DNA of 42,046 nucleotides from Slackia heliotrinireducens (GTDB lineage Bacteria > Actinomycetota > Aquicultoria > DYIV01): the NCBI GenBank assembly GCA_020723435.1, contig DYIV01000006.1:2329-44374 (forward strand), written 5' to 3'. This document shows positions 22,326 through 41,366 of the stretch, one piece after another. A model generated the notes under the pieces. That model searched no databases and was not told the DNA's origin. It was given only the letters and a program-made list of their open reading frames with translations. A program made the translations under genes and the position numbers. Numbering within the stretch: the first letter of the stretch is position 1; each line of letters starts with the position of its first letter.

Positions 22326-23096
22326 CTACTCGAAGGCCACGTCAGCGGGCATGCCGGGCTTGAGCTTCTGCCCCAGATTGACCAGCGTCACGGTCGTACG
22401 AAACACCTGCTTGACGCGCTGCTCTTTCGTCTCGATGTTGCCCGGCGTGAACTCGGCCTGGGACGCGATGCGCGTGACCTTGCCGTCGAAGGCCTCACCG
22501 GGATACGAATCGACGCCGACCTTCGCCGCCTGGCCGATCTTGACCAGCCCCAGCTGGGCCTCTGGAACGAAGACGTCGACGTGCACCGTGCGCAGGTCGC
22601 CTACAACTGCCACGATCGTGCCGGGCGTGGCGTTCTCGCCCGCGCTCACCGGCACCGACAAGACGATGCCCGCCTGCGGCGACTTGATGGCCGCGTAGGA
22701 TAGCTGAACCGCCGCCATCTGGTAGGCGACGTTTGCCTGGCGAAGCTGTGCCTTGGCCGCCGCGATGTCTGCGTTCGTTCCGTCGTCTCGAGTCGCCTTC
22801 AGGGCGGCGCGGGCGGCGGAGATGCCGGCCTTGGCCTGTTTCACCTGGTCGGCGAGGAGCGCGTAGTCGAGACGGACCAGGGTCTGACCCTTCTTGACCC
22901 GGTCTCCCTCGCTGACGGCGACCGAGGTGATGCGTGCCGCGGTCTGGGCGCTCACCTCGATCTCGGTCGCCTCAATCGTCCCCGAAGCCGCGAGCCCGCC
23001 GTTCTGGGCCTCCTGTTGGGACAAGACGTAGTACGCGATGCCGCCGACCGCTGCGACGACCACGACGAGTATGATGAATCGAAACGCCTTCTTCAT
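22326..23096 (-). CDS. HlyD-family membrane fusion protein (YbhG-like)
   Basis: TM anchor, ASGTIEA, EGDRVKKGQ, AEFTP, LKPGMPAD. Confidence 0.9.
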   Translation of the reverse strand: MKKAFRFIILVVVVAAVGGIAYYVLSQQEAQNGGLAASGTIEATEIEVSAQTAARITSVAVSEGDRVKKGQTLVRLDYALLADQVKQAKAGISAARAALKATRDDGTNADIAAAKAQLRQANVAYQMAAVQLSYAAIKSPQAGIVLSVPVSAGENATPGTIVAVVGDLRTVHVDVFVPEAQLGLVKIGQAAKVGVDSYPGEAFDGKVTRIASQAEFTPGNIETKEQRVKQVFRTTVTLVNLGQKLKPGMPADVAFE

Positions 23097-23104
23097 GGGG
23101 CCTC

Positions 23105-24475
23105 CTAGCGTATGCTGATCCGTGCATCCGCGGGCATCCCGTCCTTCAGGATGCCGTCGGGATTGTCGACGAGAAGCGTCACCGCTTGGACATTGGAGAA
23201 GTACATCCGCTCCGTGGCCGTGTTGGACGGAGCGAACTCGACGGTCGATCCGATCAGATCGACACGTCCCGGAAGGGATCGATTCGAAAACGTGTCGATG
23301 CTGACCTCGGCCTCCTGGCCGAGTCGAACCATCCTCACTTCGTCCGGCGGCAGGTACAGAAACAGTTTCGCGCTGCCGGCTCGGGAGATCGTCACCAAGG
23401 GCTGGTTTGAGAAGGCAAGCTCGCCCGCCTGCGCCGTGACGTCAACGACCACTCCGGCGCCCGGCGCGCGAACGAGAGCCTTCGCAAGCTCGGTCGCGCT
23501 GGCCGCGACGGCGGTGCGGGCCAGGCTCACGTTGACCCGCGCGAGCTTGTGAGCGGCTGCCAGGCGTCTGCGTCCCTTGTCAATCTGTTCCTGCGCGTCG
23601 TCGAGCTTGGCCTCGGCCGCCTTGAGCTTGGCCGCGGCCGTTTCAAGGGCCGCGAATCCCGCCTCGAGCTGCGCCCGTCCCCTCGCCAGCTCTGCCTCGG
23701 CGGCCGCCAGCTGCTCTTTGAGCTCGGCCGGGTTCGGGAGTTTCGGGATCTTCGGCGCCGGAGCCGGGACAGGCGTGCCGCTTGTCGGCGGCGAGGGCAT
23801 CGGAGGAATCGGCGGCAGCGGCGGAGTCTTCATCTTCGACAGCTGGGCCTTCTGGGCAGCGAGCTCTCGCTCGCCTTCGGATATCTGCGCCAGGCCTTCG
23901 TTGAGCTGGGCGCGTCCTTCATCGAGTTGGTCCTTGCCCTCGGCTATCTGCTCCCGGGCCTGGTCGAGTTCCCGCTGCTTCTGCTCCAGCTCTGCGATTC
24001 TCTTCTCCACGATGAGTACGTTGGCTCTGGCTTGGGAAAGGACGGCCCTATTCCGCTTCAGCGCCAGTCGCAGGAGCCGATCGTCGATCCTGGCCAGCGG
24101 CGCACCCGCCTTGACCGTCTCACCTTCCGTGACGAAGAGCCGTGTGACGATTCCGGTCGGCGTGATCGGATTCGTCGCGATCTGTGAAGGAATGCGGGTC
24201 GAGCCCGAGCCTGAGGCCAGTGCGGTCGCCTCGACTCGCGCATCGACGCGAGCCGTCACCGCGAAACCGTCGAGGAGATTCCGTTGCTTCGCGAAGCTGT
24301 TCATTGGGACGACGACGGGCGGGGCCGTGATGCGTGGCGTAGTCACCGTCCACTGCTCGGTGTCGACGACGCCCGACGCGTAGACGGTCCCGAGCGGCGC
24401 CGGGCTCATCGCCGACGTGACGGTCGCCTGGAACAAGAACAAGACAGTGAGGCCGATAAGGAGGTCCCTTCTCAC
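23105..24475 (-). CDS. HlyD-family membrane fusion protein with long coiled coil and Pro-rich insert
   Basis: EGETVKAG, EFAP, LKDGMPADA. GTG 24475 follows GAAGGGAG. Confidence 0.8.
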   Translation of the reverse strand: MRRDLLIGLTVLFLFQATVTSAMSPAPLGTVYASGVVDTEQWTVTTPRITAPPVVVPMNSFAKQRNLLDGFAVTARVDARVEATALASGSGSTRIPSQIATNPITPTGIVTRLFVTEGETVKAGAPLARIDDRLLRLALKRNRAVLSQARANVLIVEKRIAELEQKQRELDQAREQIAEGKDQLDEGRAQLNEGLAQISEGERELAAQKAQLSKMKTPPLPPIPPMPSPPTSGTPVPAPAPKIPKLPNPAELKEQLAAAEAELARGRAQLEAGFAALETAAAKLKAAEAKLDDAQEQIDKGRRRLAAAHKLARVNVSLARTAVAASATELAKALVRAPGAGVVVDVTAQAGELAFSNQPLVTISRAGSAKLFLYLPPDEVRMVRLGQEAEVSIDTFSNRSLPGRVDLIGSTVEFAPSNTATERMYFSNVQAVTLLVDNPDGILKDGMPADARISIR

Positions 24476-24488
24476 CCAGGCTCCCTTC

Positions 24489-25136
24489 TCATCTCGGCTC
24501 ACTCCGCACAAGGAGGCCGCCAAGCGCCAGATCGGCGATCTGGTCGCGCACGTCGTCGATTCTGTAGGGCTCCTGGAAGCGTATGGTCAGGATGTGGAAG
24601 TGAAGGATCATGCCGAGGACGGCGCGCACGGCGACGTCCGGGTCGACGTCGCGGCGAAACTCGCCGGCCGCCACGCCTTCTCTGACAATCCCCTCCAGCA
24701 CGTCCAGGTACTCGGATCGAAACCTCTTCAGCCGTCTCATCGTCTTGGGTGGGGGCTTACCCCTCTCGGGCATTATGAACTCGACGAGCTCCCGGCCGGC
24801 CGCGAGCCACCCCATCAGGGCGCTGACAAGCGAGCGCAATCGATCGGCGGCCGGCAGGTCGGCCGAGGCCAGCTCACCGGCCTGCTCGATGAAGCGGTCG
24901 AGGTGAGCGTCGACGACGAGCAGGCCCAGATCCTCCTTGCTCGGCGTGTGGTAGTAGAGCGTCGCCTTGCCGATCCGCGCCGCGTCGGCGATGTCTTGCA
25001 TCGTCACGCTCGAGTAGCCTTTCGTTGCGAAAAGGTCGGACGCGGCTGCGACAATCTGTCGCTCGGTCTGGCGACTGCGCCTCTGGCAAAGCTTCTTCTT
25101 CAGGTCCCGCACCTCGCTAGGGTTTCGAGCTCGCAC
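24489..25136 (-). CDS. TetR/AcrR family regulator
   Basis: AASDLFATKGY..TMQDIADAARIGKATLYYH..SKEDL HTH. Start must lie downstream of the promoter (25136 or 25112). Confidence 0.9.
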   Translation of the reverse strand: MRARNPSEVRDLKKKLCQRRSRQTERQIVAAASDLFATKGYSSVTMQDIADAARIGKATLYYHTPSKEDLGLLVVDAHLDRFIEQAGELASADLPAADRLRSLVSALMGWLAAGRELVEFIMPERGKPPPKTMRRLKRFRSEYLDVLEGIVREGVAAGEFRRDVDPDVAVRAVLGMILHFHILTIRFQEPYRIDDVRDQIADLALGGLLVRSEPR

Positions 25137-25145
25137 CTCGCTATG

Positions 25146-25232
25146 TTTCGACCCGGCGGTCGAAAAGAGTGGTGAGATCACTATAGGCCGCTCACTGCTG
25201 GTGTCAAGACTTTTCGACCGGTCGGTCGAAAA
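25146..25232 (-). promoter_or_regulatory. Sigma70 promoter flanked by two TetR-type operators
   Basis: TTTCGACC-N4-GGTCGAAA at 25146-65 and 25212-31; TTGACA(25207-02)-N16-TATAGT(25185-80). Confidence 0.75.
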
Positions 25233-27293: not shown

Positions 27294-28025
27294 CTATCCC
27301 GAATCGGTCATCTCCGACGGCTTGACCTGCAATCGCTTGAGCAGGCTGATGCAGGCGACCGCCAGTCCGATCGCCGCCAGCATCCGGTAGAACTGGATCG
27401 GCAGGCCCAAGATCACGGTTGGTGCGGGGTATCCGCTCGTTATCGCTCCCGCGAGCACACCGTACGTGGCCAGGCAGATCGCCGCTGTGAGAGTATCTCG
27501 CGCGCACTCGCGCATGTTGAGCGCCTGGCACCTGCGCGACAGCATGTAGAAGCCGTACCCACCAAGCAGCGCTCCCGGAAGCCCGATGAGGAGCCGGATC
27601 GCGCGCTCCACCGCCGATATCTCCAGAGCCGACGCGCCTTCCGCGTACAAAGAGAGAAGCCCGGCCGCCAGCCCAATCAGTCCGAAGACTCCAAGCGTGA
27701 TCACCGATCGATAGATTCTCGGATCCCGAATCGAGATCGCCAGGCCGAACTGGAGCAGAAGGATGAAGGATGCTGCCAGCAGGGTCAGCCGGATCGCGCC
27801 CAGGGCGCTGCCCGGGGTGGCTTCCACGCCGGGCAGTCGAAGGCCGACGTCGACTACGTCTGACAGACCGTGTACAAAAGCGAACATGCTCAGCAGACGC
27901 AGGTGTGCGGCAACGCCCAGCCGCGCGGTGCGTTCACCGTAGAGCCAGAGGGACACGCCCGTTACGAGCCACGCTCCTCCATACACGGCGTAGACAACAA
28001 GCAAGCCGACCTCGCGGAAACTCAC
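27294..28025 (-). CDS. Stand-alone multi-pass membrane protein resembling a sensor input domain
   Basis: About 7 TM helices with FAFVHGLSD and GLPIQFYR motifs like N-terminal domains of membrane sensor kinases; no output domain. GTGA overlap with the upstream regulator. Confidence 0.6.
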   Translation of the reverse strand: MSFREVGLLVVYAVYGGAWLVTGVSLWLYGERTARLGVAAHLRLLSMFAFVHGLSDVVDVGLRLPGVEATPGSALGAIRLTLLAASFILLLQFGLAISIRDPRIYRSVITLGVFGLIGLAAGLLSLYAEGASALEISAVERAIRLLIGLPGALLGGYGFYMLSRRCQALNMRECARDTLTAAICLATYGVLAGAITSGYPAPTVILGLPIQFYRMLAAIGLAVACISLLKRLQVKPSEMTDSG

Positions 28026-29506
28026 GGTAGCGCTCCTTTCCCTGCCGCCTTTTCAGGCAGGATGTCGAGTTCCGTCAAAAGCATACCATCACTGTCCGAT
28101 ATACGCTGGGCGACGCTGTCGAGTATCTCCGAGACGAACGCCTCTCCAAGACGAGACTTGGCCGATCGGACGACGAGAGAAACATAGTTCTTGGCCTGAT
28201 TCTCGACAGTCTCCTGACTGCCGGCGAATCGACTGGCCACGCTGCGACGGTCGCTGGGATGCCAGAAGTCGGGAAGCGTGGCTTCTGCGGCGGCGAATGA
28301 AACATCTTCGTAGATCAGCGTCACGGTCTTCTCTCCGGCGATAACCTCCACGGATTCCGCAAAAAGGCGCAGACAGTTGGCGATAGCGGTAACAAGGCGC
28401 CGCTTCTTCTCATCCGACCTGACGATCCAGCCGATCGCCCACAGAGGGTAGAGCGTCAGCAGCAGAGAGTGCGAATCGGAGCCCAGCTGCCGCAGCAGAT
28501 CCCGCAACGTGCGGACCCCGTCTATCTCGGCGAGGACTCGCCGCTCGTCTTCGGTCAGATCTATGCCGACGGTCTCGTACTCGTAGCCGGGACGCGTGTC
28601 GAGCACCGCTCCGACCTCCATCGGAATCTGGCTGCGGGCGGCCTCCGGCGGTACGAGGCGGCATCCGCGGAGTATGACCGCCATGTGACCGTCGACCTTT
28701 TCGACCTGATCGTCGGGGACCTCAACGTGCGAGAAGGCGAAGCGGCGATCGGTGGCGGCAAAGGTCTCGCGCAGCGCGACGTCGGTCTTGACACCGGGGA
28801 CCGAAACGAGCCCGGTGAGCGTGCCTTCCTCGAACTGGAATCCAACCTTGCGGTCGTCGGCGAACCCCCACAGTACGCCGGAGCGACGGGCGGCGACGAC
28901 GTTGCGCAGCGTCTCATAGAGCGGGCATTCGTATTGCGGATCGGGCGCACCCGCCGGGACGGCGGTCAACGTGCCCGCCGACGATGCTTGGAGTAGGGCT
29001 GTCACGTGACGTATCTCCGCGTCCAAGAGCGCTCGACGGCGATCGAGCACGAGCACGAGCGACGCATCTCCGGAAACCCGGGCGTCTTCGAGCGTTCTCT
29101 CGAGCAACGATAGCGCCTGCTGCAGCGACGTCAGCCTGGCCAGAATGCGGGAGGTGGCGACGCTCGGCTCGAGCCGGTCGCTGTAGTACAAGGCGATATC
29201 GAAGCTCTGCATGGACTCCGGCAGCTCGCCCAAGGCCACCTCCACCTCAGTGAAGAATTCCCGGCGTCCCTCATCGGTGATCGAGTAGACCGTTCTCTCC
29301 GGCTTTCCTCCGTGCCGCTCGGAGTGTCGGGAGACGAAACCGGCACGGGCGAGACGGTTCAGCGCGTAGTAGACGGACGCCCGTCCCATCTTCACCCAGA
29401 CGCTCATGTATGGACCGCCGAGTTGATCCACCAGTTCGTATCCGTGCATCGGTTCTCGAATGAGCATCCCGAGCAGCATGAGATCGGTCTTTGAAATGCC
29501 CTTCAC
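28022..29506 (-). CDS. PadR-family regulator fused to a DUF4388 (PATAN)-like domain
   Basis: PMHGYEL..SVYYALNRL..YSITDEGR (PadR); LYETLRNVVAARRSGVL..FQFEEG and LTEDERRVLAEIDGVRTL (DUF4388-like). Confidence 0.75.
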   Translation of the reverse strand: MKGISKTDLMLLGMLIREPMHGYELVDQLGGPYMSVWVKMGRASVYYALNRLARAGFVSRHSERHGGKPERTVYSITDEGRREFFTEVEVALGELPESMQSFDIALYYSDRLEPSVATSRILARLTSLQQALSLLERTLEDARVSGDASLVLVLDRRRALLDAEIRHVTALLQASSAGTLTAVPAGAPDPQYECPLYETLRNVVAARRSGVLWGFADDRKVGFQFEEGTLTGLVSVPGVKTDVALRETFAATDRRFAFSHVEVPDDQVEKVDGHMAVILRGCRLVPPEAARSQIPMEVGAVLDTRPGYEYETVGIDLTEDERRVLAEIDGVRTLRDLLRQLGSDSHSLLLTLYPLWAIGWIVRSDEKKRRLVTAIANCLRLFAESVEVIAGEKTVTLIYEDVSFAAAEATLPDFWHPSDRRSVASRFAGSQETVENQAKNYVSLVVRSAKSRLGEAFVSEILDSVAQRISDSDGMLLTELDILPEKAAGKGALP

Positions 29507-29733
29507 GGAGCCCCCGCCTCGACGTATGAGTCCAGATCGAATGGTACCGCTTTTGGCGGATGCCTGCCAGTATAATCACACGTTATTCCATCACGGACTA
29601 ATCCTGCCACTCACAGTGATCGAGGGAAAAGCCTGACGTGGTACCCGTTCCGACATCGCGGCGATGGTCGCGCGACCTCTGCTGCACCAGGCGGGCTAGG
29701 CCTGCTGCCTGCGGAAAGAGCGCCTGGAGAGCG

Positions 29734-29752
29734 GAGTGTTAAGAGAGTGTTA
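29734..29752 (+). promoter_or_regulatory. 11-bp-period direct repeat (OmpR/PhoB-type box candidate)
   Basis: GAGTGTTA at 29734 and 29745, ~30 bp upstream of the -35. Confidence 0.4.
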
Positions 29753-29783
29753 GGAAACCTTCACAGAAAGACAAGAAAAGGGG

Positions 29784-29812
29784 TTGCAGGCTCGTCCAAA
29801 GTGGACTAAGCT
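29784..29812 (+). promoter_or_regulatory. Sigma70-type promoter of the cytochrome cluster with an overlapping dyad
   Basis: TTGCAG-N17-TAAGCT; the spacer contains GTCCA-AAG-TGGAC. Confidence 0.55.
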
Positions 29813-29820
29813 GAGATAGA

Positions 29821-29965
29821 CCTCAGAGGCGTGGTGGCCCGGATGTTGCTCTTAGGTACGGAGGAAGCAATCGGCATGGGAGTCTCATCGTGAAAGCAGG
29901 AACAAGGCTGAACGGGCTCCCCGCAAACGACACAGTCCGGATTGTGGGCTCTTCACTGCCTCAGG
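29821..29965 (+). ncRNA. Putative multi-branched 5' leader RNA
   Basis: Closing stem 29821-40/29946-65; inner stems 29846-50/29866-70, 29878-85/29914-21 and 29931-36/29941-46. Confidence 0.4.
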
Positions 29966-30102
29966 ACGCCCCCCTTTTAAGGAAATACCTGACATGAAAC
30001 GTCAAGATACCTCCCCCCGGCAAGGTCACATCGCCGCTGCCCACTTGTGCAGGGGCGTGGATTGACACGTTGGCAACCGAGAAGAAAGGAGGTGCATACA
30101 TA

Positions 30103-31692
30103 ATGAGGTTGCTCAAAGAAAGTAGGAGTGCAATGGTGCTGTTTGTGGCCGCTGTTCTCGTTTTCGTTCTGGGCCTGGCGACGACGGCACTTGCCGTAGC
30201 GCCACAGACGTACAACGAGGCCGATCCGGCTTTCGGCCGCTCAGCATGGACCTATAAGGACCTCCAGGATACGGATGCGAAGTACGAAGGTAGCTACGCC
30301 GTCTTCGACGACACGTCTACCGCGATGTACAACAATCCGCACGGTGGTTACGACACCGGCACGAACCAGTGCAAGGTGTGCCATGCGGTCCACCGCGCCA
30401 ACGGCGCGTACTATCTCTTGCGTGCCGATTCGCAGGACGACGCATGCTCCTACTGCCACATCGGAGGTTCCGCTCACTCGGACAAGGTTGTCTACGACGC
30501 GAACCCGGATGGCATCTATACGACGAACGGCCATACGATAGGTGCTCAGACGCAGATCCCGGATTCGTCGGAGAGCCAGGAGGCCACCGCGGTCACCCTG
30601 TCGACGACGGACGCCAACGGCGATCCGCTTGAAGAGACCATCCACGTTCGTAGTTACGAGACGGCCAAGAACGAGATGTACAGGTTCGGTCGTCACCACA
30701 GCCAGAGCCCGGTATCTACGGGACGCAGTGGCTATGCCAAGATCGGACCGCTGGCTCTTCGTTGCATGAACTGCCACCAGCCGCACAACGCGACGGAGTT
30801 GGTCTGGAAGCCGCGTGACTTCACGCCGTTCACCAGCGCCAACTACAGCACGGCCACCGACGGCGCCTTCAGGACATCGAGCTACAAGCTCCTGCGGCGT
30901 TATCCGTCCGCGTCCACCTACGGCTCGATCAACAGCTACGGCTACTGGGATGACGTGCAGGCCATCAAGGTCATCGAAGACAGCGCGACTGCCGGGCTGA
31001 ACTTCAGCCAGGAGATGTCCGCCGAGTCGACCTACACGGAGAACGGCGTTACGCGGCGTCAGCCGCTGTGGATTGCCCAGGATATCCACAAGCCCGATCC
31101 GGATTCGGAGAGTGGCATCTATCGCTACCCGAACAAGGTCAACAACATGGCGTTGTCATGGTGGTGTGCTGACTGTCACAACCTGAACGTTGGTGGCTGG
31201 GAGCCGCTGACCGACCCCGAGCTCGGCTTCAAGGCTCACACCGAGCGGACCCACCCGGCACCGTACTACGGCGCCTACACGGGTCCCGGCCAGTGCTACA
31301 GCTGCCACCGCAACGACCTGTCGCCGCAGATGGGCCTGACGGCTGCCACCAACCCGGATCGTTCCTCGGGTTACGCCGCGGGTCACACTGTCGGCGGTGT
31401 TGTCAGCGCGACGGCTATCACGGGATCGTCCCGGAACGGGTGCACCCAGTGCCACTACGGAACCGGCGACTACTATCGTGAGCGCGTGAATGGCGGCGGC
31501 GTACCTGTCGTCGAGTCCGACTTCCCGCACTCCGGCGGTACTGAGGATATCAAGATGCTGGGTAACTACAGCGCGTCGGTCGCAAGCGCAACCGCGAGCT
31601 ACGCGCCGACCTACAGCCAGACCACCGTCACCGAGAATAATCTCGATGCAGTGTGCCTGCGCTGTCATCCCGGCGTCGGTATCCACATCTAG
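30103..31692 (+). CDS. Secreted heptaheme cytochrome c with OmcS-like motif order (candidate major subunit)
   Basis: AAAGGAGGTG SD and signal peptide ending ALA. CKVCH, CSYCH, CMNCH, CADCH, CYSCH, CTQCH, CLRCH. Confidence 0.9.
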   Translation: MRLLKESRSAMVLFVAAVLVFVLGLATTALAVAPQTYNEADPAFGRSAWTYKDLQDTDAKYEGSYAVFDDTSTAMYNNPHGGYDTGTNQCKVCHAVHRANGAYYLLRADSQDDACSYCHIGGSAHSDKVVYDANPDGIYTTNGHTIGAQTQIPDSSESQEATAVTLSTTDANGDPLEETIHVRSYETAKNEMYRFGRHHSQSPVSTGRSGYAKIGPLALRCMNCHQPHNATELVWKPRDFTPFTSANYSTATDGAFRTSSYKLLRRYPSASTYGSINSYGYWDDVQAIKVIEDSATAGLNFSQEMSAESTYTENGVTRRQPLWIAQDIHKPDPDSESGIYRYPNKVNNMALSWWCADCHNLNVGGWEPLTDPELGFKAHTERTHPAPYYGAYTGPGQCYSCHRNDLSPQMGLTAATNPDRSSGYAAGHTVGGVVSATAITGSSRNGCTQCHYGTGDYYRERVNGGGVPVVESDFPHSGGTEDIKMLGNYSASVASATASYAPTYSQTTVTENNLDAVCLRCHPGVGIHI

Positions 31693-31745
31693 TCGCGAGT
31701 TAGAGGAGCGAAGAGCTTATCGACTCGCACTGAGAGCATGAGAGG

Positions 31746-31779
31746 TGAGCCCCCGCCCTAGGGCGGGGGCTCATTCTTG
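31746..31779 (+). terminator. Strong hairpin / intrinsic terminator
   Basis: Perfect 28-bp palindrome TGAGCCCCCGCCCTAGGGCGGGGGCTCA followed by TTCTT. Confidence 0.8.
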
Positions 31780-31864
31780 GAAGGTCGCCGGCCGGTTGCG
31801 CCTGTCGGCCGCATCGGTAGGCGCATCGGCGAGTTGACCGACGAATGGGCCGATCCACCAAGAT

Positions 31865-31881
31865 CTGGCATATGGGTTGCT
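31865..31881 (+). promoter_or_regulatory. Sigma54-type -24/-12 promoter
   Basis: CTGGCATATGGGTTGCT (GG-N10-GC), ~65 bp before GTG 31947. Confidence 0.6.
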
Positions 31882-31946
31882 ATATATCTGTACTGGGCAG
31901 ATGGGTACCTCAACCGGAAGAAAGCTAGCGAAGGGAGGCGAACCGG

Positions 31947-32666
31947 GTGGCCAGCACGGGGCAATCGCCTGAGTTCGTCGATCATGCTCGGGCCGTGACT
32001 CACGTCACAACCGGCTACGCTGAAGCGGAGTCGCGCGCCGAGCCCCATAAGGCACGGCTGCTGTTTCGAGCTCTTCTGGTCACCGCGCTTCTCGCCCTAA
32101 GCCTCGCCGTCGTCGTCAATTGGCTCGCCGTTCCCTGGGACTGGGGTTCCGGACAATTACGCGTCTCCGTTCCGGCGCCCGACGGACGCGTGCCGCCTCC
32201 GGGCATCAAGACGGCCGTCAACGAGCTACCGGGCGCGATTCCCGGGTTCGAGAACATCACGAGGCAGGCAGTTCCCGGCCAGGGTGGCCGTGCCGTCGAG
32301 GCGCTGTATGTGACTCTGAACATGAACCTCGAGATCCAAGTGCCGATAGCCGTCTACGTACGGGCCGAGGGGTTCCCCTCCGGCGCCCTCGCCCGGCGGC
32401 GGGCGACTGAGATCGCGGGACCCTTCCCGGTTGGCGCCTCAAGCGTTCGGGTCGGGAAGACGGCCGTCGGCAGGGCGGGTTACAGCTCCGATCGAGGCGC
32501 CTACACCATTACGTGGACCCGAGGTCAACACGTCTTCTTCGTCAAGAGCACGTTTCGCGACAAGGCCCCGGCACAAAAGCGAGATTTCCTCAGAGTTCAG
32601 GCTCGTCCGGTGGCAGACGCCATCGAGGCGTATCAGCGCTCCGGCAAACGGAGCATCAAGCTCTAG
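31947..32666 (+). CDS. Membrane-anchored hypothetical protein
   Basis: GGGAGG SD, single TM, extracellular domain. Confidence 0.7.
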   Translation: MASTGQSPEFVDHARAVTHVTTGYAEAESRAEPHKARLLFRALLVTALLALSLAVVVNWLAVPWDWGSGQLRVSVPAPDGRVPPPGIKTAVNELPGAIPGFENITRQAVPGQGGRAVEALYVTLNMNLEIQVPIAVYVRAEGFPSGALARRRATEIAGPFPVGASSVRVGKTAVGRAGYSSDRGAYTITWTRGQHVFFVKSTFRDKAPAQKRDFLRVQARPVADAIEAYQRSGKRSIKL

Positions 32667-32690
32667 GGCGAGAAGCCCAAAGGAGTAATC

Positions 32691-33716
32691 GTGCCGCAAA
32701 CCGGCGACAAGAATCGCCTGCGCAGCAGAATGGATCGCTACAGGCTCGACACGGAGCGGGTTTGGTACCTTGCCCTGTCTGTAGTCTGCTTTGTGCTGAT
32801 CGTGGCCGGCGCCGTATCCGCAGCCGCGGTGAGCCCGCGTTTCTGCGCGGCGTGTCATGACCGCGAGACGGACGCCCTGACAAAGTCGGCCCACAAGACC
32901 ATCGCGTGCGATCGATGTCACACGGCGCCGAGCCTGGCGGGGGTGGTCGACAGCAGGCTCGCGGTGGTCGGCATGATACCGGCCCAGCTCGTCGCCGGCA
33001 GCGGCCCCGCGCCGACGGTCATCGACAACGACCGTTGCGTGGCGTGTCACAAAGAGGTGCTCACGGCCACGACCACGTCGAAGGGGCTGCGCATGAACCA
33101 CCGCGCGCTGTATGAGAAGAAGTGGTCATGCACGCGCTGTCACCCGCGAACGGCGCATCCGTCCTCACGAGCTCCCGTTCTCGGCTACTCGATGGACGTC
33201 TGCATGGAGTGCCATACGCCTACGACGGCGGATCTGACCGCCTGCGACATGTGCCACGTCGGCAAGTACCCCTCGGTTCGGCAGCAGGCGGGCGCGACGA
33301 CACCGTGGGGCATCACGCACGGCCCCAACTGGCGCAAGACGCACGGCATGGGCAACTTGAACACCTGCGCCGCCTGCCACCAGGATGGGTACTGCGCCAC
33401 ATGCCACAAGATAGACATGCCGCACCCGGCGAACTTCCCGTCCGAGCACGGGAAGGTCGTCCTCAGCCGGGAGAGCGGAACGGAGGACTGCTTCGTTTGT
33501 CACAAGCGAACGACGTGTGACAATTGCCACGGCATCGAAATGCCGCATCCTACCGGATTCATAAAGACGCACTCCAAGACCGTTGGACGCATGGGCCAGG
33601 CGGTTTGCGAGCGATGTCACGCCGAATCATCCTGCCTGGACTGCCATGCGACCCACATCCATCCCGGGCTGCTGCCCGAAGTCATAAAGAAGCTACGAGC
33701 GAGGCCGGCCACATGA
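32691..33716 (+). CDS. Membrane-anchored dodecaheme cytochrome c with NapC/NirT-like N-terminus
   Basis: TM helix then FCAACH..SAH..CDRCH; 12 CxxCH counted; MPHP repeats. Confidence 0.88.
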   Translation: MPQTGDKNRLRSRMDRYRLDTERVWYLALSVVCFVLIVAGAVSAAAVSPRFCAACHDRETDALTKSAHKTIACDRCHTAPSLAGVVDSRLAVVGMIPAQLVAGSGPAPTVIDNDRCVACHKEVLTATTTSKGLRMNHRALYEKKWSCTRCHPRTAHPSSRAPVLGYSMDVCMECHTPTTADLTACDMCHVGKYPSVRQQAGATTPWGITHGPNWRKTHGMGNLNTCAACHQDGYCATCHKIDMPHPANFPSEHGKVVLSRESGTEDCFVCHKRTTCDNCHGIEMPHPTGFIKTHSKTVGRMGQAVCERCHAESSCLDCHATHIHPGLLPEVIKKLRARPAT

Positions 33717-34933
33717 GGCTGCAAGACTACATAAACTCGGCTCGCACCTGGCTCACCGGCGGCGATCCGGCACGCAATCTCATCACGATTCTGGTGATCG
33801 TACTGGTGGTCACCGCAGTCATCGCCGGCGTCGTCTACTTCGTTCACGTCACGACGCCGAAAGGACGGATCGAAGCGCTGTTGCGCAGCAGGGCGCAGGA
33901 GCAGGCCCGCGGTCCGGCATGGCTCGTGAGGCTACTGGCGATACTGCTCTTCATCCTGGCCTTCGCGGGCATCGGCTATTACATGGACAGACCGGAAGGA
34001 TGCAACCAGTGCCATGGGAATGCCTGGTCGAAATCGCTGTCCAGATCGCCTCACAAGGATGTCTCCTGCATGGACTGTCACGGCTCGCGGGGGATAACCG
34101 GGCCGGCGCGCGATCTGGTGGCGTACGCTCGGTGGGTAACCGTCTACACGGCCGCCCGCGAGGTCGTCAAGCCTCGAGGCGTGGGCATCTACGAGGGCGC
34201 GTGCCTCGATTGCCACCCTGAGGTCCGCACCTCGACTCGCGTCCGAAACGGAATCCGCGTGCGACACAAGGACTTCCTGGTCAGCGGCGTTACCTGCGCC
34301 GATTGCCACAACATGACGTCCCATCCCGACGAGGTTGCCGAACCGACCAAGCCAAGCATGAGCGGGTGTCTGATCTGTCACAACGGCGATCGCGCGTCGG
34401 CCGAGTGCGAGACGTGCCACGTTCGGGATCCCGCGCTGCAGTCGGTGCCTCGCGGGTTCGCCAAGGTCCATATGAGCTCCGAGCAGCAGAAAGGGGCCTG
34501 CTTCAAATGCCACAACCCGGCGCCCTGCACGGCCTGCCACGGACTGCGCATGCCGCATCCCCCTAACTGGGTGGCAAAGGGCGGCGTCGATCAGAGAAAC
34601 AGGCACGCCCGGGAAGCCTTCGTCGACCGGCAGGTCTGCTGGCGCTGCCACTACAAGGGAACGGACGTGTTTTCAGCCAACCCGGACGCGTGCAAGCCCT
34701 GCCACGAACCCGGCATGGACACAAAGATGCACGGAGGCTCGGTGTGGATACAGGAGCACGGGCCGGAGGCAACGGGTAAGAGGACAGGAGTCTTCGCGGC
34801 CTGCTTCGACTGCCATTCAGCGACGCTGTGCGATCAGTGTCATCCGGCGTCGTACCGGAAGCTGTACAAGCCGAGAACGGGTCCGGACCAGTACCAGCGG
34901 GCCGTGCCGCTCGACCCGAGTCTGGTCCCGTAG
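33713..34933 (+). CDS. Membrane-anchored dodecaheme cytochrome c (two N-terminal TMs), paralog of the upstream gene
   Basis: ATGA overlap at 33713-16; 12 CxxCH counted; CNQCH..SPH..CMDCH NapC-like start. Confidence 0.88.
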   Translation: MRLQDYINSARTWLTGGDPARNLITILVIVLVVTAVIAGVVYFVHVTTPKGRIEALLRSRAQEQARGPAWLVRLLAILLFILAFAGIGYYMDRPEGCNQCHGNAWSKSLSRSPHKDVSCMDCHGSRGITGPARDLVAYARWVTVYTAAREVVKPRGVGIYEGACLDCHPEVRTSTRVRNGIRVRHKDFLVSGVTCADCHNMTSHPDEVAEPTKPSMSGCLICHNGDRASAECETCHVRDPALQSVPRGFAKVHMSSEQQKGACFKCHNPAPCTACHGLRMPHPPNWVAKGGVDQRNRHAREAFVDRQVCWRCHYKGTDVFSANPDACKPCHEPGMDTKMHGGSVWIQEHGPEATGKRTGVFAACFDCHSATLCDQCHPASYRKLYKPRTGPDQYQRAVPLDPSLVP

Positions 34934-34954
34934 TTCGCGGAAGAAGGAGAGAAG

Positions 34955-35356
34955 ATGCGCAAGGTCATTACAGCACTGATAGTTGTCGCCCTGCTGGCGG
35001 CGGTCACCATCGTGGCGCTGTTGTTCAGCTCTCGGGGGCCAACGTCGACGCAAGTGATCAAGGACGCCAAGACGATACCGAAGAGCGCCATGGCGTTCGT
35101 CCGCAATCCATACAAAGACGACTACGGGATGAGCCGCGTATCGGGTTACGTGCAGAACCGGTCCGGCACGAAGATCGTGAACGCGCGCCTGGACATTCAG
35201 CTATCCGATTCGGCCGGCAACAAGAAGGAGCTCATCAAGTATCAGGTCAAGGACATACGTCCGTACTCCAGAAAGAGCTTCGACGCCAACGCGGGGCCCC
35301 TCGGCGGGGCTCGACGCGCCGACGTGAAGATAGTTGAGATCGAGGTGGCCAAGTGA
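34955..35356 (+). CDS. Membrane-anchored FxLYD-like domain protein
   Basis: TM helix then VSGYVQN..IQLSDSAGN pattern. AAGGAG SD. Confidence 0.6.
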   Translation: MRKVITALIVVALLAAVTIVALLFSSRGPTSTQVIKDAKTIPKSAMAFVRNPYKDDYGMSRVSGYVQNRSGTKIVNARLDIQLSDSAGNKKELIKYQVKDIRPYSRKSFDANAGPLGGARRADVKIVEIEVAK

Positions 35357-35946
35357 TGGTCCGTACTCGCCAACGTCCAGGCAGCGCAGACCGAAGCGGC
35401 CACACGTGGCTTCTCGTGCGGCGCCTACTGGCGGCGGCCGTGGTGATCGTGCTCGCGGCGGGTTGGGCCGCGTTGCCCGGCTGCGCCGGGGACTCCCGTC
35501 AGGTGACCATCGTCAAGCCGGGGCAGGAGAAGCGCGCGGGCTTGACTCCGCTGGAGCGAGGCCGGATTCGAGGAGAGGTGCTGCAGGTGGTCAGACCCGC
35601 CATCAAGGCGTGGCGGGCGGGCGATATCACGGCGATGAAGCGGTACTTCTCCGCCGAGCTGGTGACCTACAACGCCAAGGTCAAAGCGGACTACGCGCGT
35701 GAGGGCAAGGTCCGGGTGCGCGCTCACACCAATGTCGGCATGGACGTTGTCGAGTTGACGCCCGACGGCCGCGAGGCCTCGGTTCAGTACACCTTCAGGA
35801 ATCGGTCCTACTTCGCCGCGAAGAGCACGAGGCGCGCTCTGACGAAGCCCACCGACGAGGATGGCGAGATAGACATGATCCTGAAGCGCACCAACGAGGG
35901 TTGGACCATAACGCGCATGTTCAGTGGTAGGGATGAGCTGCTGTGA
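35356..35946 (+). CDS. Hypothetical exported protein / possible lipoprotein
   Basis: Hydrophobic signal ending LPGC; coupled to the upstream stop codon. Confidence 0.6.
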   Translation: MVRTRQRPGSADRSGHTWLLVRRLLAAAVVIVLAAGWAALPGCAGDSRQVTIVKPGQEKRAGLTPLERGRIRGEVLQVVRPAIKAWRAGDITAMKRYFSAELVTYNAKVKADYAREGKVRVRAHTNVGMDVVELTPDGREASVQYTFRNRSYFAAKSTRRALTKPTDEDGEIDMILKRTNEGWTITRMFSGRDELL

Positions 35947-35957
35947 TCGTAGGTAAC

Positions 35958-35974
35958 TTGGCATTTGTATTGCT
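35958..35974 (+). promoter_or_regulatory. Sigma54-type -24/-12 promoter
   Basis: TTGGCATTTGTATTGCT (GG-N10-GC) in the gap before the TPR gene. Confidence 0.6.
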
Positions 35975-36049
35975 CCATTCAGTGTGTTGCGGGACAACGC
36001 GGCACCGATCCGATTTGGAAGTCTCAAGAGCCCAGGGGGTTGTCCGTTG

Positions 36050-36766
36050 ATGCTGGAAAAAGCCGTTCCATATCTGAAGGTCGCCATCGTTCTTCTCGTC
36101 GTGGCGTTGCTCGTGCTGGCAGCCGGTCTCGTTCGCTACGTGCTGCTGGGAGGTTCGGGGGCCGGCGCGCCCAGATCCGAGCTGGAGCGGGCGGTCTTCG
36201 CCGCTGAGGAGGCGGTTCGGGCCAATCCACAGGACGCCGGGGCGCGGGTGAAGCTCGCTGCGGCCTATCTGGAGCAGAATAGCGTCAGCTCGGCTATCGA
36301 GCAGGCTGAGTTCGCCATCAGGCTCGCGCCGAAGGATCCTAGCGGCTACTACGTGCTGGGCCTGGCTCAGTCCGAGTCCGGCGATCTGAAGGCCGCCGCC
36401 GGCAACCTGACGAAGTCCGCGAGGCTCAAGGGCCAGCTCGGCGACTTCTACGCGGACGTATACGCCGCGCTTGCCACCGTTCAGGAGAAGGATGGCGATC
36501 TGAAGGGCGCCATCAAGACGATGGGCAAGGCCCTCGACCAGGCGCCGGAGAACGCGGTCTATCTCACGACTCGCGGCCGCATGCACGAAGACGCGCGCGA
36601 GTGGGTGTGGGCGCTTGATGACTACCTTTCAGCGCTTCAGTACGTGCCGGACTACGAGCCTGCCGGCGATGCCTACAACCGCCTGGCTCGCGAGCATCCG
36701 GAGGCGCTCGAGAAGCTCAAAGAGATGGAGAAGGCAAGCCAGAAAGCCCAGACGAAGAGCAAGTAG
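36050..36766 (+). CDS. Membrane-anchored TPR protein
   Basis: TM helix, then 34-aa periodic repeats (ARVKLAAAY, GYYVLGLAQ, VYAALATVQ, YLTTRGRMH). Confidence 0.85.
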   Translation: MLEKAVPYLKVAIVLLVVALLVLAAGLVRYVLLGGSGAGAPRSELERAVFAAEEAVRANPQDAGARVKLAAAYLEQNSVSSAIEQAEFAIRLAPKDPSGYYVLGLAQSESGDLKAAAGNLTKSARLKGQLGDFYADVYAALATVQEKDGDLKGAIKTMGKALDQAPENAVYLTTRGRMHEDAREWVWALDDYLSALQYVPDYEPAGDAYNRLAREHPEALEKLKEMEKASQKAQTKSK

Positions 36767-36780
36767 CTTAGGAGGTCACC

Positions 36781-38235
36781 TTGTCACCAAGCAGCGAAGC
36801 AACCAGACGCACGGCGGTCAGATATCTGGCTGTCGCCATCGCCCTTCTCCTTTTAGTTCTGATTCTGGGCATCTTCTACTATCTGCTCACGCGCCCGCCC
36901 GAGCTCAAGGAGAGCGGGGCCAAGGATCGCAACTTCCTCTTTTCGATATACGGTTTCCAAGGCGACTTGTTACGTAGACCGACCGGGGTCGGCCTGGACG
37001 CAAAGGGCAACATCTACGTTGCCGACACCGGCAAGAAGCGCATCGTCATCTTCGATCGGGAGGGCAACTACGTCGCGACCTACGGCGAATTCGGCAAGAA
37101 GCCGCTGGAGCTGTGGGATCCGATAGACGTCGCCGTCGCGGCGGACGGACGAAGCTATGTGCTCGACAAGACTCAGAAGAAGATTGTCGTCTACGACTCG
37201 GCTCGCCGGCCGATTCACGTCATCACCTTTCCTGAGGCGCCGCTGTCGGTCGAAGTCTCCGGCGACAAGCTGTTCGTTACGACGGTCAGCGGCGTGCTCA
37301 TCGGCGACCTGAGAGGCAATCTGCTGACCGGCTACATCGCCCGGGGCAAGAAGACCGGGCAGTTCGACCTTCCCGGCGCGCTGGCGGTGGGCAAGGACGG
37401 AACCCTCTACGTCGCCGACTCTCTCAACTATAGGGTCCAGGCGATCGGGACGAACGGGAAGCCCAAGTGGGCCTATGGCAAGCCGTTGCCGCCCAAAACG
37501 GCGGTGATGTATCGAGGTGGCGACCGCAAGTTCGGCCTGCCGGCCAGCATCGCGCAGGACGACAACGGAAACCTCTACGTCGTCGACGGCCTCAACAGCG
37601 AAATCGTCGTTCTCGATTCGGATGGCGAGTTCATCGAGAAGATGGGCACGCAAGGGCACGGCGACGGCGAATTCTACTATCCGGAAGGTATCACCTATGG
37701 CGACGGTCGCCTCGTCGTGGCCGACAAGTTCAACGACCGTGTGGAGGTCTTCTCGGTACCGATCCTCGGCGGTCCGCGCTACACGGCGTATCTGCCGCTC
37801 GCACTGCTGTTGCTCCTGCTGCCGCTGCTGCTCTTCCTGCTGCGGCGCCGGGTGCGCTACGTGGCGACGTCGGCCTTTGTCGGCATGCTTGCCGCCGACG
37901 AGAACGCGGAACTCGTCGCCGACGCACTGAAGAAGGTCAACGTCTCGCCGGCGCTGGCGGAGCGCGCGAGCGGGCTGGAGAACGTCGAGCTGTCCTGGCT
38001 CAGCCGAGACATACCCTCCGATCGCGTGAGCGATCTTGTTGAGCAGTATCGCCTCGAGCAGGAAGACGCCGAGGCTCTGGCCGTGGCGCTCGGGCTGGGC
38101 GGCAGGAAGGTCCTGCTGACCGAGACCGAGGACGTCAGGCAGGCCGCCGTCGACCTGGAGGTTCCGACGCTGAGTTACGAGGAACTGATCGACACCCTGC
38201 GGTCGCCCGAAACCGAAGGCGAGGCGGCGGGATGA
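36781..38235 (+). CDS. NHL-repeat beta-propeller protein with second TM and degenerate PIN-like C-terminus
   Basis: Repeats PxG..D..GNIYVADT, GQFDLPG, GEFYYPEGI, VADKFNDRV; Leu-rich TM followed by RRR. Confidence 0.85.
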   Translation: MSPSSEATRRTAVRYLAVAIALLLLVLILGIFYYLLTRPPELKESGAKDRNFLFSIYGFQGDLLRRPTGVGLDAKGNIYVADTGKKRIVIFDREGNYVATYGEFGKKPLELWDPIDVAVAADGRSYVLDKTQKKIVVYDSARRPIHVITFPEAPLSVEVSGDKLFVTTVSGVLIGDLRGNLLTGYIARGKKTGQFDLPGALAVGKDGTLYVADSLNYRVQAIGTNGKPKWAYGKPLPPKTAVMYRGGDRKFGLPASIAQDDNGNLYVVDGLNSEIVVLDSDGEFIEKMGTQGHGDGEFYYPEGITYGDGRLVVADKFNDRVEVFSVPILGGPRYTAYLPLALLLLLLPLLLFLLRRRVRYVATSAFVGMLAADENAELVADALKKVNVSPALAERASGLENVELSWLSRDIPSDRVSDLVEQYRLEQEDAEALAVALGLGGRKVLLTETEDVRQAAVDLEVPTLSYEELIDTLRSPETEGEAAG

Positions 38236-38777
38236 GAAAGACGCCGAAGACTCTCGCCGTGGCGATAGTCGTCTCGACCCTGGGCATCCTGGCGCTGGTC
38301 GCCGGATGCTCGGGGTCGCGCGTTCCCGATCCGGAAGGGATCCCCGAGCAGACGCGCAGCGCGTCGGTCTTCTTCTCAACCGGCCGCTCGCTGTTCGAGG
38401 AGAGACGGCTCGTGGACGCGAAGGATGTGTACGGCCAGACGCTCGCGGAGCTTCTGGAGGCGCACCCGGTCACCAATCCCGATGTCGCCATCGTCCAGCC
38501 TGCGGCCAAGGTTCGCTCGGTCAAGCTGGACCGCGGGGTGCTCACCATCGACTGGGACAGAGACGTTCTGAAGTTCGAGGCGGAGCCGAAGGAGAAAGTG
38601 TTGGCGCTCGCCGCGATCCTCAGGACATTCGGCCAGTTTCCAGAGGTGAAGAAGGTTCGCTTCACAGTGGAAGGTAAGACAGACGGCAAACTCGATGGTT
38701 CGGACGTACAAGTCTTCTGGGGTCGAGTCAGCCTGCGCGGTCAGCCCTGGGACGTGCTGCGGCCCTCGACAAAGTAG
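38232..38777 (+). CDS. GerMN-domain lipoprotein
   Basis: Lipobox VAGC; AILRTFGQFPEVKKVRFTVEG is typical of GerMN. Confidence 0.8.
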   Translation: MRKTPKTLAVAIVVSTLGILALVAGCSGSRVPDPEGIPEQTRSASVFFSTGRSLFEERRLVDAKDVYGQTLAELLEAHPVTNPDVAIVQPAAKVRSVKLDRGVLTIDWDRDVLKFEAEPKEKVLALAAILRTFGQFPEVKKVRFTVEGKTDGKLDGSDVQVFWGRVSLRGQPWDVLRPSTK

Positions 38778-38790
38778 CCGTGGCCGTTCA

Positions 38791-41353: not shown

Positions 41354-41366
41354 CCTCCGCGCGGGA

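Follow-up and report, generated by a model that had tools for sequence, protein, structure and literature searches.

The question raised by this locus is why a single-membrane actinobacterium should carry two diverged multihaem cytochrome genes, one at either end of the same gene cluster. The window analysed here is a 42,046-nt stretch of Slackia heliotrinireducens DNA (GCA_020723435.1, contig DYIV01000006.1, positions 2,329 to 44,374 of the forward strand). How electrons of single-membrane bacteria travel across the thick wall to minerals is poorly understood. To our knowledge, the cytochrome nanowires solved so far are all from Gram-negative bacteria and archaea, and we know of no minor subunit in a cytochrome filament. 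An earlier note on this DNA had compared the two genes, here designated cyt7, with OmcS of Geobacter sulfurreducens (GSU2504; 6EF8/6NEF), and had read copy 1 as an abundant structural subunit and copy 2 as a low-copy nucleator, cap or anchor.

Copy 1 (30103-31692, forward strand; the type 1 or head copy) encodes a secreted protein of 529 aa, with a signal peptide ending in ALA. Copy 2 (38791-40296, forward strand; type 2 or tail) has a GTG start and encodes a secreted protein of 501 aa. The two proteins are 44% identical (BLASTP, E 3e-131), and they are the only full-length cyt7 proteins in the 2.3-Mb assembly. The claim that both paralogues carry seven CxxCH motifs, against six in OmcS, was borne out by motif counts (residues 90, 115, 221, 355, 398, 447 and 518 in copy 1; 95, 120, 226, 361, 405, 429 and 490 in copy 2) and by the description of OmcS as a hexahaem protein in the accessible portions of PMC10954620 and PMC12954529. 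Each mature protein has exactly 14 Cys, none of them outside the motifs, and CYSCH, CxxCHYGTG, DFPHS and CLRCH are common to both. Like OmcS, cyt7 is a secreted multihaem protein, predicted to be mostly coil; each haem corresponds to about 70 aa in either copy and to 68 in OmcS (407 aa, six haems). A reading of cyt7 as an enzyme with a catalytic haem was rejected: all seven sites are CxxCH, and eight to nine conserved non-motif His are on hand.

There were 201 cyt7 homologues at E<=1e-3. Exactly seven CxxCH motifs were present in 93 of the best 120; a further 20 had more (8 to 25, mostly in longer proteins) and seven had fewer. Alignment A1 comprised 91 rows, 89 from the best 120 homologues plus both window copies, and the Cys and His residues of the seven motifs, 21 in total, were invariant in it (91/91 rows), so the extra motif is conserved in homologues. 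In a broadened family alignment and profile (A4, 53 rows), site 7 and H476 were again invariant. Site 6 was read as CxxCH in 41/53 rows and as CxxxCH in 6/53, and was absent or merged with site 5 in 6/53 (P0164, P0216, P0218, P0219, P0226 and P0237, each with six motifs); a deep clade counted as ‘six-CxxCH’ reads CxxxCH at this position. Site 6 (C447-H451 in copy 1, C429-H433 in copy 2) is most likely the extra haem site, judging from its loss in distant six-haem relatives and its CxxxCH form in the deep clade.

When A4 was compared with PDB sequences, OmcS (6ef8_A) came first, with E 1.4e-7 and 34 bits at a high composition bias (16.4). The match was one collinear stretch, profile 89-390 against OmcS 8-405, in which all six OmcS motifs were paired with cyt7 motifs: CKVCH..H97 with OmcS C9-H13..H16, WCADCH with WCANCH, and CYSCH with C328-H332. 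cyt7 therefore resembles OmcS in its collinear haem sites, with CxxCHxxH at site 1 and WCAxCH at site 4. The earlier note had called for an alignment to OmcS to locate the extra haem. In the profile alignment the last OmcS motif is paired with site 6, which would make site 7 the extra one, against the family pattern that favours site 6. The view that the C-terminal region departs from OmcS was half borne out: haem 5 aligns with OmcS haem 5, and of the final two sites only one is additional. OmcE-type tetrahaem nanowire cytochromes (7TFS) were the second-best profile match and nearly as good (E 2e-7). Unlike that of OmcS, however, the OmcE match was non-collinear, in three short motif-centred pieces, and OmcE was missing from the fold search lists. 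Reaction-centre cytochromes reached up to 1e-5. Narrower queries of the PDB (copy 1 alone, A1, A3, P0226 and P0237) did not find OmcS, the similarity being visible only with the broadened profile.

Predicted haem-free monomers (AF2; pLDDT 78 for copy 1, 81.5 for copy 2) were compared with 48,161 chains by VIA-align. OmcS ranked first for both, at Z 4.8 on a scale on which unrelated best matches often reach Z 7-8, with rmsd 4.1 over 175 aligned residues at 24% identity for copy 1 and rmsd 4.4 over 189 at 21% for copy 2. The matches covered OmcS 9-407 and 1-407, respectively, and just two and four chains reached Z>=2. The two models are not independent, because the proteins are paralogous and have most alignment rows in common. 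The sole cytochrome besides OmcS in the wide VIA searches was a chain of the Mtr complex (6r2q_A; Z 2.9-3.0), and other folds are conceivable. Foldseek searches of the PDB with the two models were empty at E<=0.001, and VIA re-scoring of its list gave none at Z>=2. Pfam and NCBIfam returned generic multihaem families only, and the protein atlas only generic ‘doubled CXXCH’ clusters without structure. The collinear profile match and the fold ranking, each weak in itself, together support a distant relationship between cyt7 and OmcS. Because cyt7 has seven sites that are invariant in A1, we place it as a related seven-haem variant and not as a member of the OmcS family.

The two copies lie in different gene settings. 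Upstream of copy 1, the Shine-Dalgarno sequence AAAGGAGG (30085-30092, forward strand) ends ten nt 5' of the ATG at 30103, and a perfect 28-nt palindrome follows 54 nt past the stop codon (31746-31773, forward strand), where it would form a GC hairpin acting as a terminator or stabilising the mRNA. Both the perfect Shine-Dalgarno sequence and the palindrome had been noted before, and both were found again. Folding of 31725-31790 with RNAfold gave -35.1 kcal/mol (z -3.38), and one of 200 shuffles folded as well; the U-tract is weak (TTCTTGG). The promoter assigned earlier to copy 1 can be deduced only from the arrangement of the locus: the PadR-like gene is divergent, and the 596 nt that separate it from copy 1 (29507-30102) must, by gene orientation, hold the putative promoter. 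A scan of 29400-41500 for sigma-70-type promoters gave none near copy 1 and a single match at 33497-33524. Repeats in the copy 1 5' region were few, short and at chance level only, and no Rfam family was found in the window. The 3' hairpin, of a kind that recurs after homologues elsewhere (below), supports copy 1 as a self-contained transcription unit.

Copy 2, by contrast in setting, is the last gene of the accessory operon, as reported previously, and has no clear Shine-Dalgarno sequence: its start, which is the same in gene callers (P0089), lies 14 nt past the stop of the GerMN gene, with no GGAG-type sequence, whereas most other genes of the operon have one. A place at the end of the accessory operon does not by itself make a subunit minor, since in single-copy relatives the sole cyt7 gene sits in this tail position, after TPR-NHL-GerMN. 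Codon usage gave no further guide to abundance: CAI was 0.705 for copy 1 (61st percentile) and 0.708 for copy 2 (64th), and ribosomal genes were not distinct from background (reference median 0.676 against 0.688), so that CAI is uninformative here.

The contrast in setting recurred in other genomes. Type 2 formed a clade of four rows (SH-aLRT 100), and all three members with visible context lie behind GerMN; copy 1 fell in a 23-row clade with support of 99. Both copies are present on one contig in at least three loci (the window, L014 and L021), and the pair is probably kept in three more genomes (L012/L037, P0002/P0082 and P0037/P0090). A 3' hairpin, defined as a perfect stem of >=10 bp within 150 nt of the stop codon, followed 21 of 38 non-type-2 cyt7 genes, one of four type-2 genes and 13 of 193 other mapped genes. 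Hairpins after head or single-copy homologues elsewhere were recurrent but unrelated in sequence, and some could simply be operon ends. The estimated 5' gap behind the GerMN gene was 17, 76 and 193 nt for type-2 genes, compared with 290-690 nt in seven of nine single-copy genes that follow accessory genes. The contrasting 5' gaps and 3' hairpins of head or single copies and tail copies support different expression regimes, and the phylogeny and gene order support an old, conserved head/tail pair. Diverged paralogues conserved as a pair in distinct gene settings are one mark of a major/minor filament system, of which unequal abundance and co-assembly of the two proteins would be another.

A redundant or decaying copy 2, with no role of its own, might have been suspected from its GTG start and its lack of a Shine-Dalgarno sequence and of its own terminator. 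The reading frame is intact, however, with seven of seven haem sites and all conserved His, and copy 2 has orthologues at 53-81% identity, in their own fully supported clade. Across genome pairs, orthologue identities were 53-80% for type 2 and 54-84% for type 1, with type 2 the higher in 9 of 15 pairs. Judged by these identities, tail copies evolve as slowly as head copies. We therefore rejected decay, to which we attach almost no probability.

Retention of both copies under comparable constraint would also be expected if they co-assembled at fixed stoichiometry, whether in a heterodimer or in a heteropolymer of alternating subunits, with the differences in Shine-Dalgarno sequence, hairpin and spacing having no effect at the protein level. 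The pair is indeed kept in the loci and genomes listed above. Yet of six head-copy loci in which >=1.9 kb can be seen beyond GerMN, three lack a tail copy, and many genomes are single-copy; type 2 is thus dispensable to type 1 or single-copy proteins. The conserved contrast in gene settings also speaks against co-assembly of this kind, which we regard as improbable.

Between the two cyt7 genes, which flank it at both ends, lies a gene module read throughout on the forward strand. First comes hyp239 (31947-32666), a single-pass membrane protein of 239 aa with no family match; in the approximately 22 related loci mapped, its gene is always between cyt7 (head or single) and mhcA. The genes mhcA (32691-33716) and mhcB (33713-34933; alternative start TTG 33524) encode membrane-anchored cytochromes with 12 CxxCH motifs each, the former with one TM segment and matches to Pfam multihaem families, the latter with two TM-like stretches. 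Both have an NrfH-like part, N-terminal in MhcA, with matches to TIGR03153 (NrfH) under the family cut-off (E 1.4e-8 for mhcA, 8.1e-9 for mhcB). Next are a 133-aa FxLYD-domain protein with an N-terminal TM segment (sm133, 34955-35356; NF038353, E 1.6e-6), conserved in the module, and a conserved membrane or lipoprotein-like protein of 197 aa (p197, 35353-35946), found on either strand, with a weak SnoaL_2 match under the cut-off. Three further conserved genes precede copy 2. They encode a 260-aa TPR protein anchored by a TM segment, which matches several TPR families (35984-36766; start uncertain, ATG 36050 possible), an NHL-repeat beta-propeller protein (36781-38235; PF01436, E 3.7e-25) that has an N-terminal and a second TM-like stretch (residues 10-28 and 333-351) and ends in a tail of about 130 aa, and a 181-aa GerMN-domain lipoprotein (38232-38777; PF10646 Germane, E 2.4e-13; lipobox LVAGC). 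All products of the module are predicted to be secreted or membrane-anchored.

The order cyt7, hyp239, mhcA, mhcB, sm133/p197, TPR, NHL, GerMN recurs across 45 related loci, titled as Coriobacteriia, Thermoleophilia and Actinomycetota MAGs; all are MAG records bar one ‘unidentified bacterium isolate’, with no cultured strain among them. Genes for cytochrome c assembly are present in the genome, along with 30 ORFs that have four or more CxxCH motifs. Secreted and membrane multihaem cytochromes are thus clustered with NHL and TPR genes in a monoderm, the combination by which Gram-positive extracellular-electron-transfer clusters are recognised; NHL and TPR genes stand alongside multihaem genes in Gram-positive Fe(III) reducers in the available text of PMC10376724. 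On balance, we favour the view that these genes form a conserved extracellular-electron-transfer module in monoderm Actinomycetota. MhcA and MhcB, with their NrfH-like heads, would take electrons from the quinol pool and pass them to secreted cyt7, and thence through or beyond the wall, if the direction of flow is as we suppose. The TPR, NHL-propeller, GerMN-lipoprotein and small proteins would serve as assembly or anchoring factors. cyt7 itself would be an OmcS core, with haem sites in the same order, enlarged by one haem and by a conserved arm of about 50 aa at the N-terminus. The pair may derive from an old tandem duplication of an ancestral TPR-NHL-GerMN-cyt7-hyp-mhcA-mhcB unit, the outer halves of which were later lost. 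Copy 1 would have retained an autonomous unit, with its long 5' region, strong Shine-Dalgarno sequence and 3' hairpin, and probably supplies the bulk of the extracellular component. Copy 2, now part of the accessory operon, is probably translated alongside the GerMN lipoprotein and made in amounts like those of the accessory proteins, and would have a separate, conserved role.

Whether cyt7 polymerises bears directly on what that role could be. In OmcS, His16 ligates haem 5 of the adjacent subunit, and H97, invariant in 53/53 A4 rows, aligns with His16. OmcS and OmcE filaments alike have a haem whose His ligand comes from the neighbouring subunit (PMC9473688). Type 1 could be imagined as a seven-haem OmcS-type wire through and beyond the actinobacterial wall, with H97 ligating the neighbour's haem 5, and type 2, made with GerMN, NHL and TPR, as a dedicated minor subunit by which the wire is seeded on, or anchored to, the membrane cytochromes; we consider this full scheme unlikely. 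We see a somewhat better, if still doubtful, prospect for two non-polymerising proteins, monomeric or small-oligomeric cytochromes of the wall or surface that are separately regulated and differ in partner or acceptor (e.g. soluble versus solid, or reductive versus oxidative flow). Both copies keep seven sites and all conserved His and diverge at like rates, as would two working cytochromes. Copy number ranges from one to four per genome across the family, with tandem head duplicates in L011, L013, L027 and L034, which resembles ordinary cytochrome family expansion, and among four Geobacter hexahaem paralogues OmcS alone is known to form a wire, according to the accessible part of PMC12977616. 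Against this reading stand the invariance of the His aligned with OmcS His16 and the finding that OmcS, which forms filaments, gave the best match by structure and by profile, and the only specific one. The conserved N-terminal arm has a low pLDDT in the copy 1 model (40-52 over residues 31-110), as segments that fold on a partner often do, although the missing haems could explain this too.

The likeness to OmcS may extend to gene organization. OmcS has the paralogues OmcT, GSU2501/OscC and OmcJ, several paralogues stand in or near one operon, and the consulted portions of the sources describe one paralogue tied to an accessory or companion gene block (PMC12977616, PMC13194489) and an NHL gene, GSU2505, adjoining omcS (PMC9070056). 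The cyt7 module also has conserved NHL and TPR genes, any homology of which to GSU2505 or the osc genes would be conjectural. Unlike OmcS, cyt7 has seven haems and the conserved arm, and belongs to a monoderm host with no outer membrane and no periplasmic Ppc-type donors, in which two membrane 12-haem cytochromes would act as donors. Its companions, a GerMN lipoprotein and FxLYD proteins, also differ from those at the omcS locus. In the parts available to us, the accounts of clusters in Dethiobacter alkaliphilus (PMC10376724) and Anaerosomatales (PMC9686372) offer a second comparison: these monoderms have secreted and membrane multihaem cytochromes, including quinol-oxidising ones, with NHL- and TPR-repeat proteins proposed as assembly helpers, whereas a seven-haem OmcS-like family, a 3' hairpin and a head/tail pair are not described in those parts. 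Our literature search found no paper on a seven-haem OmcS-like family, on a cytochrome filament in Actinobacteria or on the cyt7 pair.

A similar layout is known from major/minor operons of pili and fimbriae, in which a structural gene with a strong translation signal and a 3' hairpin lies beside an accessory operon with a diverged paralogue. The resemblance of the cyt7 pair to these systems would be one of gene layout by analogy, with no homology. The head/tail pair is nonetheless a concrete case for asking if cytochrome filaments use minor subunits. If the wire reading were true, no Gram-positive-type cell would have been known before to make a cytochrome nanowire, nor any such nanowire to have a base subunit like the minor pilins. 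Finding a relative of OmcS, one haem larger, in a tightly conserved NHL/TPR module would put OmcS-type machinery well beyond Desulfuromonadia, the module being spread among uncultured subsurface Actinomycetota and some Chloroflexota. It provides a defined gene set for expression, with H97, site 6 and H476 as testable residues.

Two genes on the reverse strand precede copy 1. The PadR-like regulator gene divergent from copy 1 (28022-29506; PF03551 PadR, E 6.3e-15) encodes 494 aa with a long C-terminal extension, and it accompanies the module in four loci (the window, L009, L048 and L049). Beyond it lies a gene for a multi-pass membrane protein of 243 aa (27294-28025), with three TM-like stretches and no Pfam or NCBIfam match, which also accompanies the module in L009, L048 and L049, there too as a neighbour of the PadR-like gene.

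The window encodes two members of a seven-haem cytochrome family, here called cyt7. Copy 1 (type 1, the head copy; 30103-31692, + strand) is a single open reading frame of 529 aa with an N-terminal signal peptide (…TTALA/VAP) and CxxCH motifs at residues 90, 115, 221, 355, 398, 447 and 518. Copy 2 (type 2, the tail copy; 38791-40296, + strand) probably starts at GTG 38791, 14 nt past the GerMN stop, a start also chosen by public gene calls; its motifs lie at residues 95, 120, 226, 361, 405, 429 and 490. The count of seven CxxCH motifs in each paralogue, made in the earlier note, is thus confirmed. Each mature protein contains exactly 14 cysteines, every one inside a CxxCH motif. The paralogues share 44% identity (E 3e-131), and no other full-length cyt7 copy occurs in the 2.3-Mb assembly.

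The translation and termination signals described previously were also found. Copy 1 has a Shine-Dalgarno sequence, AAAGGAGG, read at 30085-30092 (+ strand), which is the best in the operon, and is followed by a perfect 28-nt palindrome at 31746-31773 (RNAfold -35.1 kcal/mol, z -3.38); no Shine-Dalgarno sequence precedes GTG 38791 of copy 2. The hairpin behind copy 1 is no local accident. Perfect stems of 10 bp or more, counted up to 150 nt past the stop, follow 21 of 38 non-type-2 cyt7 genes; their sequences are unrelated, and RNAfold revealed several more near-perfect stems behind such genes. The same count gave 1/4 for type-2 genes and 13/193 for the remaining genes mapped in these loci. 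The estimated 5' gap is 528 nt for copy 1 and 290-690 nt in seven of nine single-copy genes that follow accessory genes; for type 2 it is 17, 76 and 193 nt. The pattern of hairpin, 5' gap and Shine-Dalgarno sequence supports a type 1 gene that would be an autonomous unit and a type 2 gene whose expression would be embedded in the operon, these features being proxies and no measure of abundance. The codon adaptation index did not discriminate between expression levels in this genome. The proposal that copy 1 is a major subunit and copy 2 a minor one is partly supported, in the contrast between an autonomous and an operon-embedded gene. A scan for promoter consensus near copy 1 found no match; a promoter of its own is deduced from the PadR-like gene, which diverges from it, and from the 596 nt between the two.

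A word-indexed search returned 201 cyt7 homologues at E<=1e-3. Among the best 120 of these, 93 have exactly seven CxxCH, 20 have more (8 to 25 motifs, mostly in longer proteins) and seven have fewer. In a 91-row alignment (A1; both window copies and 89 of the best 120, picked by length) the seven motifs show no variation in any of their 21 Cys and His, which answers the question of whether the extra motif is conserved in homologues; H80, H97, H144, H199, H228, H379, H384 and H476 (copy 1 numbering) are invariant or nearly so. Six CxxCH were counted in a deep clade (loci L038 and L040-L044). Its sixth site reads CxxxCH throughout (L038, L040, L041, L043, L044 and protein P0156), and therefore seven attachment sites are kept there too. 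An exhaustive HMMER search with A1 gave 766 proteins at E<=1e-3, falling to 285 at 1e-10 and to 95 at 1e-30. In some relatives (L031, L034 at 9920-12367, L035 and L037; P0075, P0042 and P0083) extra multihaem domains are joined to the seven-haem core, giving 11 to 25 CxxCH per protein. Several homologues from the same class (genomes G005, G008, G011, G012 and G035) have an in-frame TGA, sometimes TAA, within the match; pseudogenes, assembly errors or selenocysteine could each account for this. Head-copy homologues split into two or three frames (L019 9878-11622, L033, L036, L039) may reflect frameshifts or assembly errors.

Neither copy 1 alone, A1 nor a deep-clade profile (A3) matched OmcS, the hexahaem nanowire cytochrome of Geobacter, in PDB sequences, and Foldseek gave no match with either model. 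The AlphaFold models (pLDDT 78.1 for copy 1, 81.5 for copy 2) were each compared with 48,161 representative chains by VIA-align, and OmcS (6ef8_A) ranked first for both. Copy 1 aligned over 175 residues (Z 4.8, rmsd 4.1, 24% identity, model 90-525 with chain 9-407) and copy 2 over 189 (Z 4.8, rmsd 4.4, 21% identity, model 86-497 with chain 1-407), a Z of 4.8 being low in absolute terms and the two models mutually non-independent. Only two chains for copy 1 and four for copy 2 reached Z>=2 in all. A broadened 53-row profile (A4; the two window copies, 14 A1 rows, five deep-clade loci and 32 distant HMMER matches), searched against 177,635 PDB sequences, placed OmcS first at E 1.4e-7 in a single stretch (profile 89-390, OmcS 8-405), a score that carries a composition bias of 16.4. 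OmcE reached E 2e-7, yet in just three short pieces. The A4 alignment pairs CKVCH94..H97 with OmcS C9-H13..H16, haem 2 with CLNCH, CMNCH..H228 with CSSCH..H, WCADCH with WCANCH, CYSCH402 with C328-H332, and the sixth motif with C400-H404. This convergence of fold search and profile makes cyt7 a probable distant homologue of OmcS. Because the OmcS family is hexahaem and cyt7 has seven sites, we keep cyt7 out of that family and regard it as a new OmcS-like variant with seven haems, within a proposed electron-export module of a monoderm.

As the C-terminal OmcS motif is paired with site 6 at the end of the profile alignment, site 7 would be the added one. Both structural alignments extend almost to the C-terminus, stopping only a few residues short of it in cyt7 and OmcS alike, and both proteins end right after their last motif. 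Across A4, site 7, H476 and H97 are invariant in 53/53 rows; site 6 is CxxCH in 41/53 and CxxxCH in 6/53, and is absent or merged with site 5 in six distant six-haem rows. Judged from the alignment ends and this row pattern, the extra haem relative to OmcS seems fairly likely to be that of site 6. A conserved N-terminal arm of ~50 aa (residues 33-85) further distinguishes cyt7 from OmcS; it is modelled at low confidence in the copy 1 monomer.

H97, invariant in cyt7, aligns with OmcS His16, which we take to be the inter-subunit ligand, on haem 5. Ligation of haem by a His from the adjacent subunit is described for OmcS and OmcE filaments in the account of PMC9473688. H97 could equally be an internal ligand, since eight to nine conserved non-motif His serve the seven haems. 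The sole hint that copy 2 might be a nucleator, cap or anchor of a putative filament is that its gene is tightly coupled to that of the GerMN lipoprotein.

A quick IQ-TREE analysis of 43 cyt7 rows (44 collected, fragment L026_2 left out) grouped copy 2 with L014_19173, L021_18722 and L037_1 (SH-aLRT 100); all three type-2 rows with visible context sit after GerMN. Copy 1 belongs to a clade of 23 rows (support 99); where the context can be seen, members of this clade lie ahead of hyp239-mhcA. Additional type-2 proteins, at 53-81% identity, occur in protein collections, and two of these come from contigs equal in length to those of type-1 proteins. Deeper relatives (L017, L038, L041, L043, L044) have a single cyt7 between the accessory genes and hyp239-mhcA-mhcB, so the order in the window would be the remnant of a tandem duplication of the whole unit, followed by loss of the outer halves. 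Across six genomes, orthologue identity is 54-84% for type 1 and 53-80% for type 2, with type 2 higher in 9/15 pairs; this about equal conservation indicates that copy 2 is a maintained gene. Where at least 1.9 kb can be seen behind GerMN in a head-copy locus (six loci), a tail copy is present in three (the window, L014, L021) and missing from three (L019, L026, L028). The pair is frequent, not universal, and four loci have tandem head duplicates instead.

Pfam and NCBIfam scans, with simple motif and hydrophobicity scans, were used to annotate the module. It includes hyp239 (31947-32666), a single-pass protein without family; the membrane-anchored 12-haem cytochromes mhcA (32691-33716) and mhcB (33713-34933), which have NrfH-like parts; a small FxLYD protein; a 197-aa protein; a membrane TPR protein; the GerMN lipoprotein; and an NHL propeller protein with two TM segments (36781-38235). 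The second TM of the latter (residues 333-351) leaves a C-terminal tail of ~130 aa, without family match, across the membrane, and the protein could connect the assembly on the outside with the cytoplasm. The only sigma-70-like match within 29400-41500 (33497-33524) lies inside the mhcA 3' end, directly preceding an alternative TTG start of mhcB (33524). Upstream of copy 1, and divergent from it, are genes for a PadR-like regulator (494 aa) and a membrane protein (243 aa) (27294-29506, - strand); they accompany the module in four loci (window, L009, L048, L049) and are candidates for a dedicated sensor/regulator pair.

Fetching 45 related loci from named MAGs showed the same gene set again; these MAGs belong to Coriobacteriia, Thermoleophilia, other Actinomycetota, Candidatus Aquicultor and one Anaerolineae. 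Of 48 species genomes in the window's own class, 13 contain the family (E<=1e-30), with one to four copies each. Published accounts describe multihaem clusters with NHL and TPR genes in Gram-positive Fe(III) reducers (PMC10376724), multihaem-rich Anaerosomatales (PMC9686372) and an NHL gene adjoining omcS (PMC9070056). The window's 2.3-Mb genome has cytochrome c assembly genes and 30 stop-to-stop ORFs with at least four CxxCH (272 motifs), including clusters on contigs C100, C131 and C149; a frame of 687 aa on C92 contains both a cytochrome c assembly domain and a weak ResB-like match. A further multihaem cytochrome gene lies at 16408-17997 (- strand; 529 aa counted from the first start codon, with 11 CxxCH across the stop-to-stop frame), beside two pairs of ABC-2 permease and ATPase genes and two HlyD-like genes (18074-24523, - strand) and a TetR gene (24489-25181). 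ABC transporters are also described beside Dethiobacter multihaem clusters in PMC10376724.
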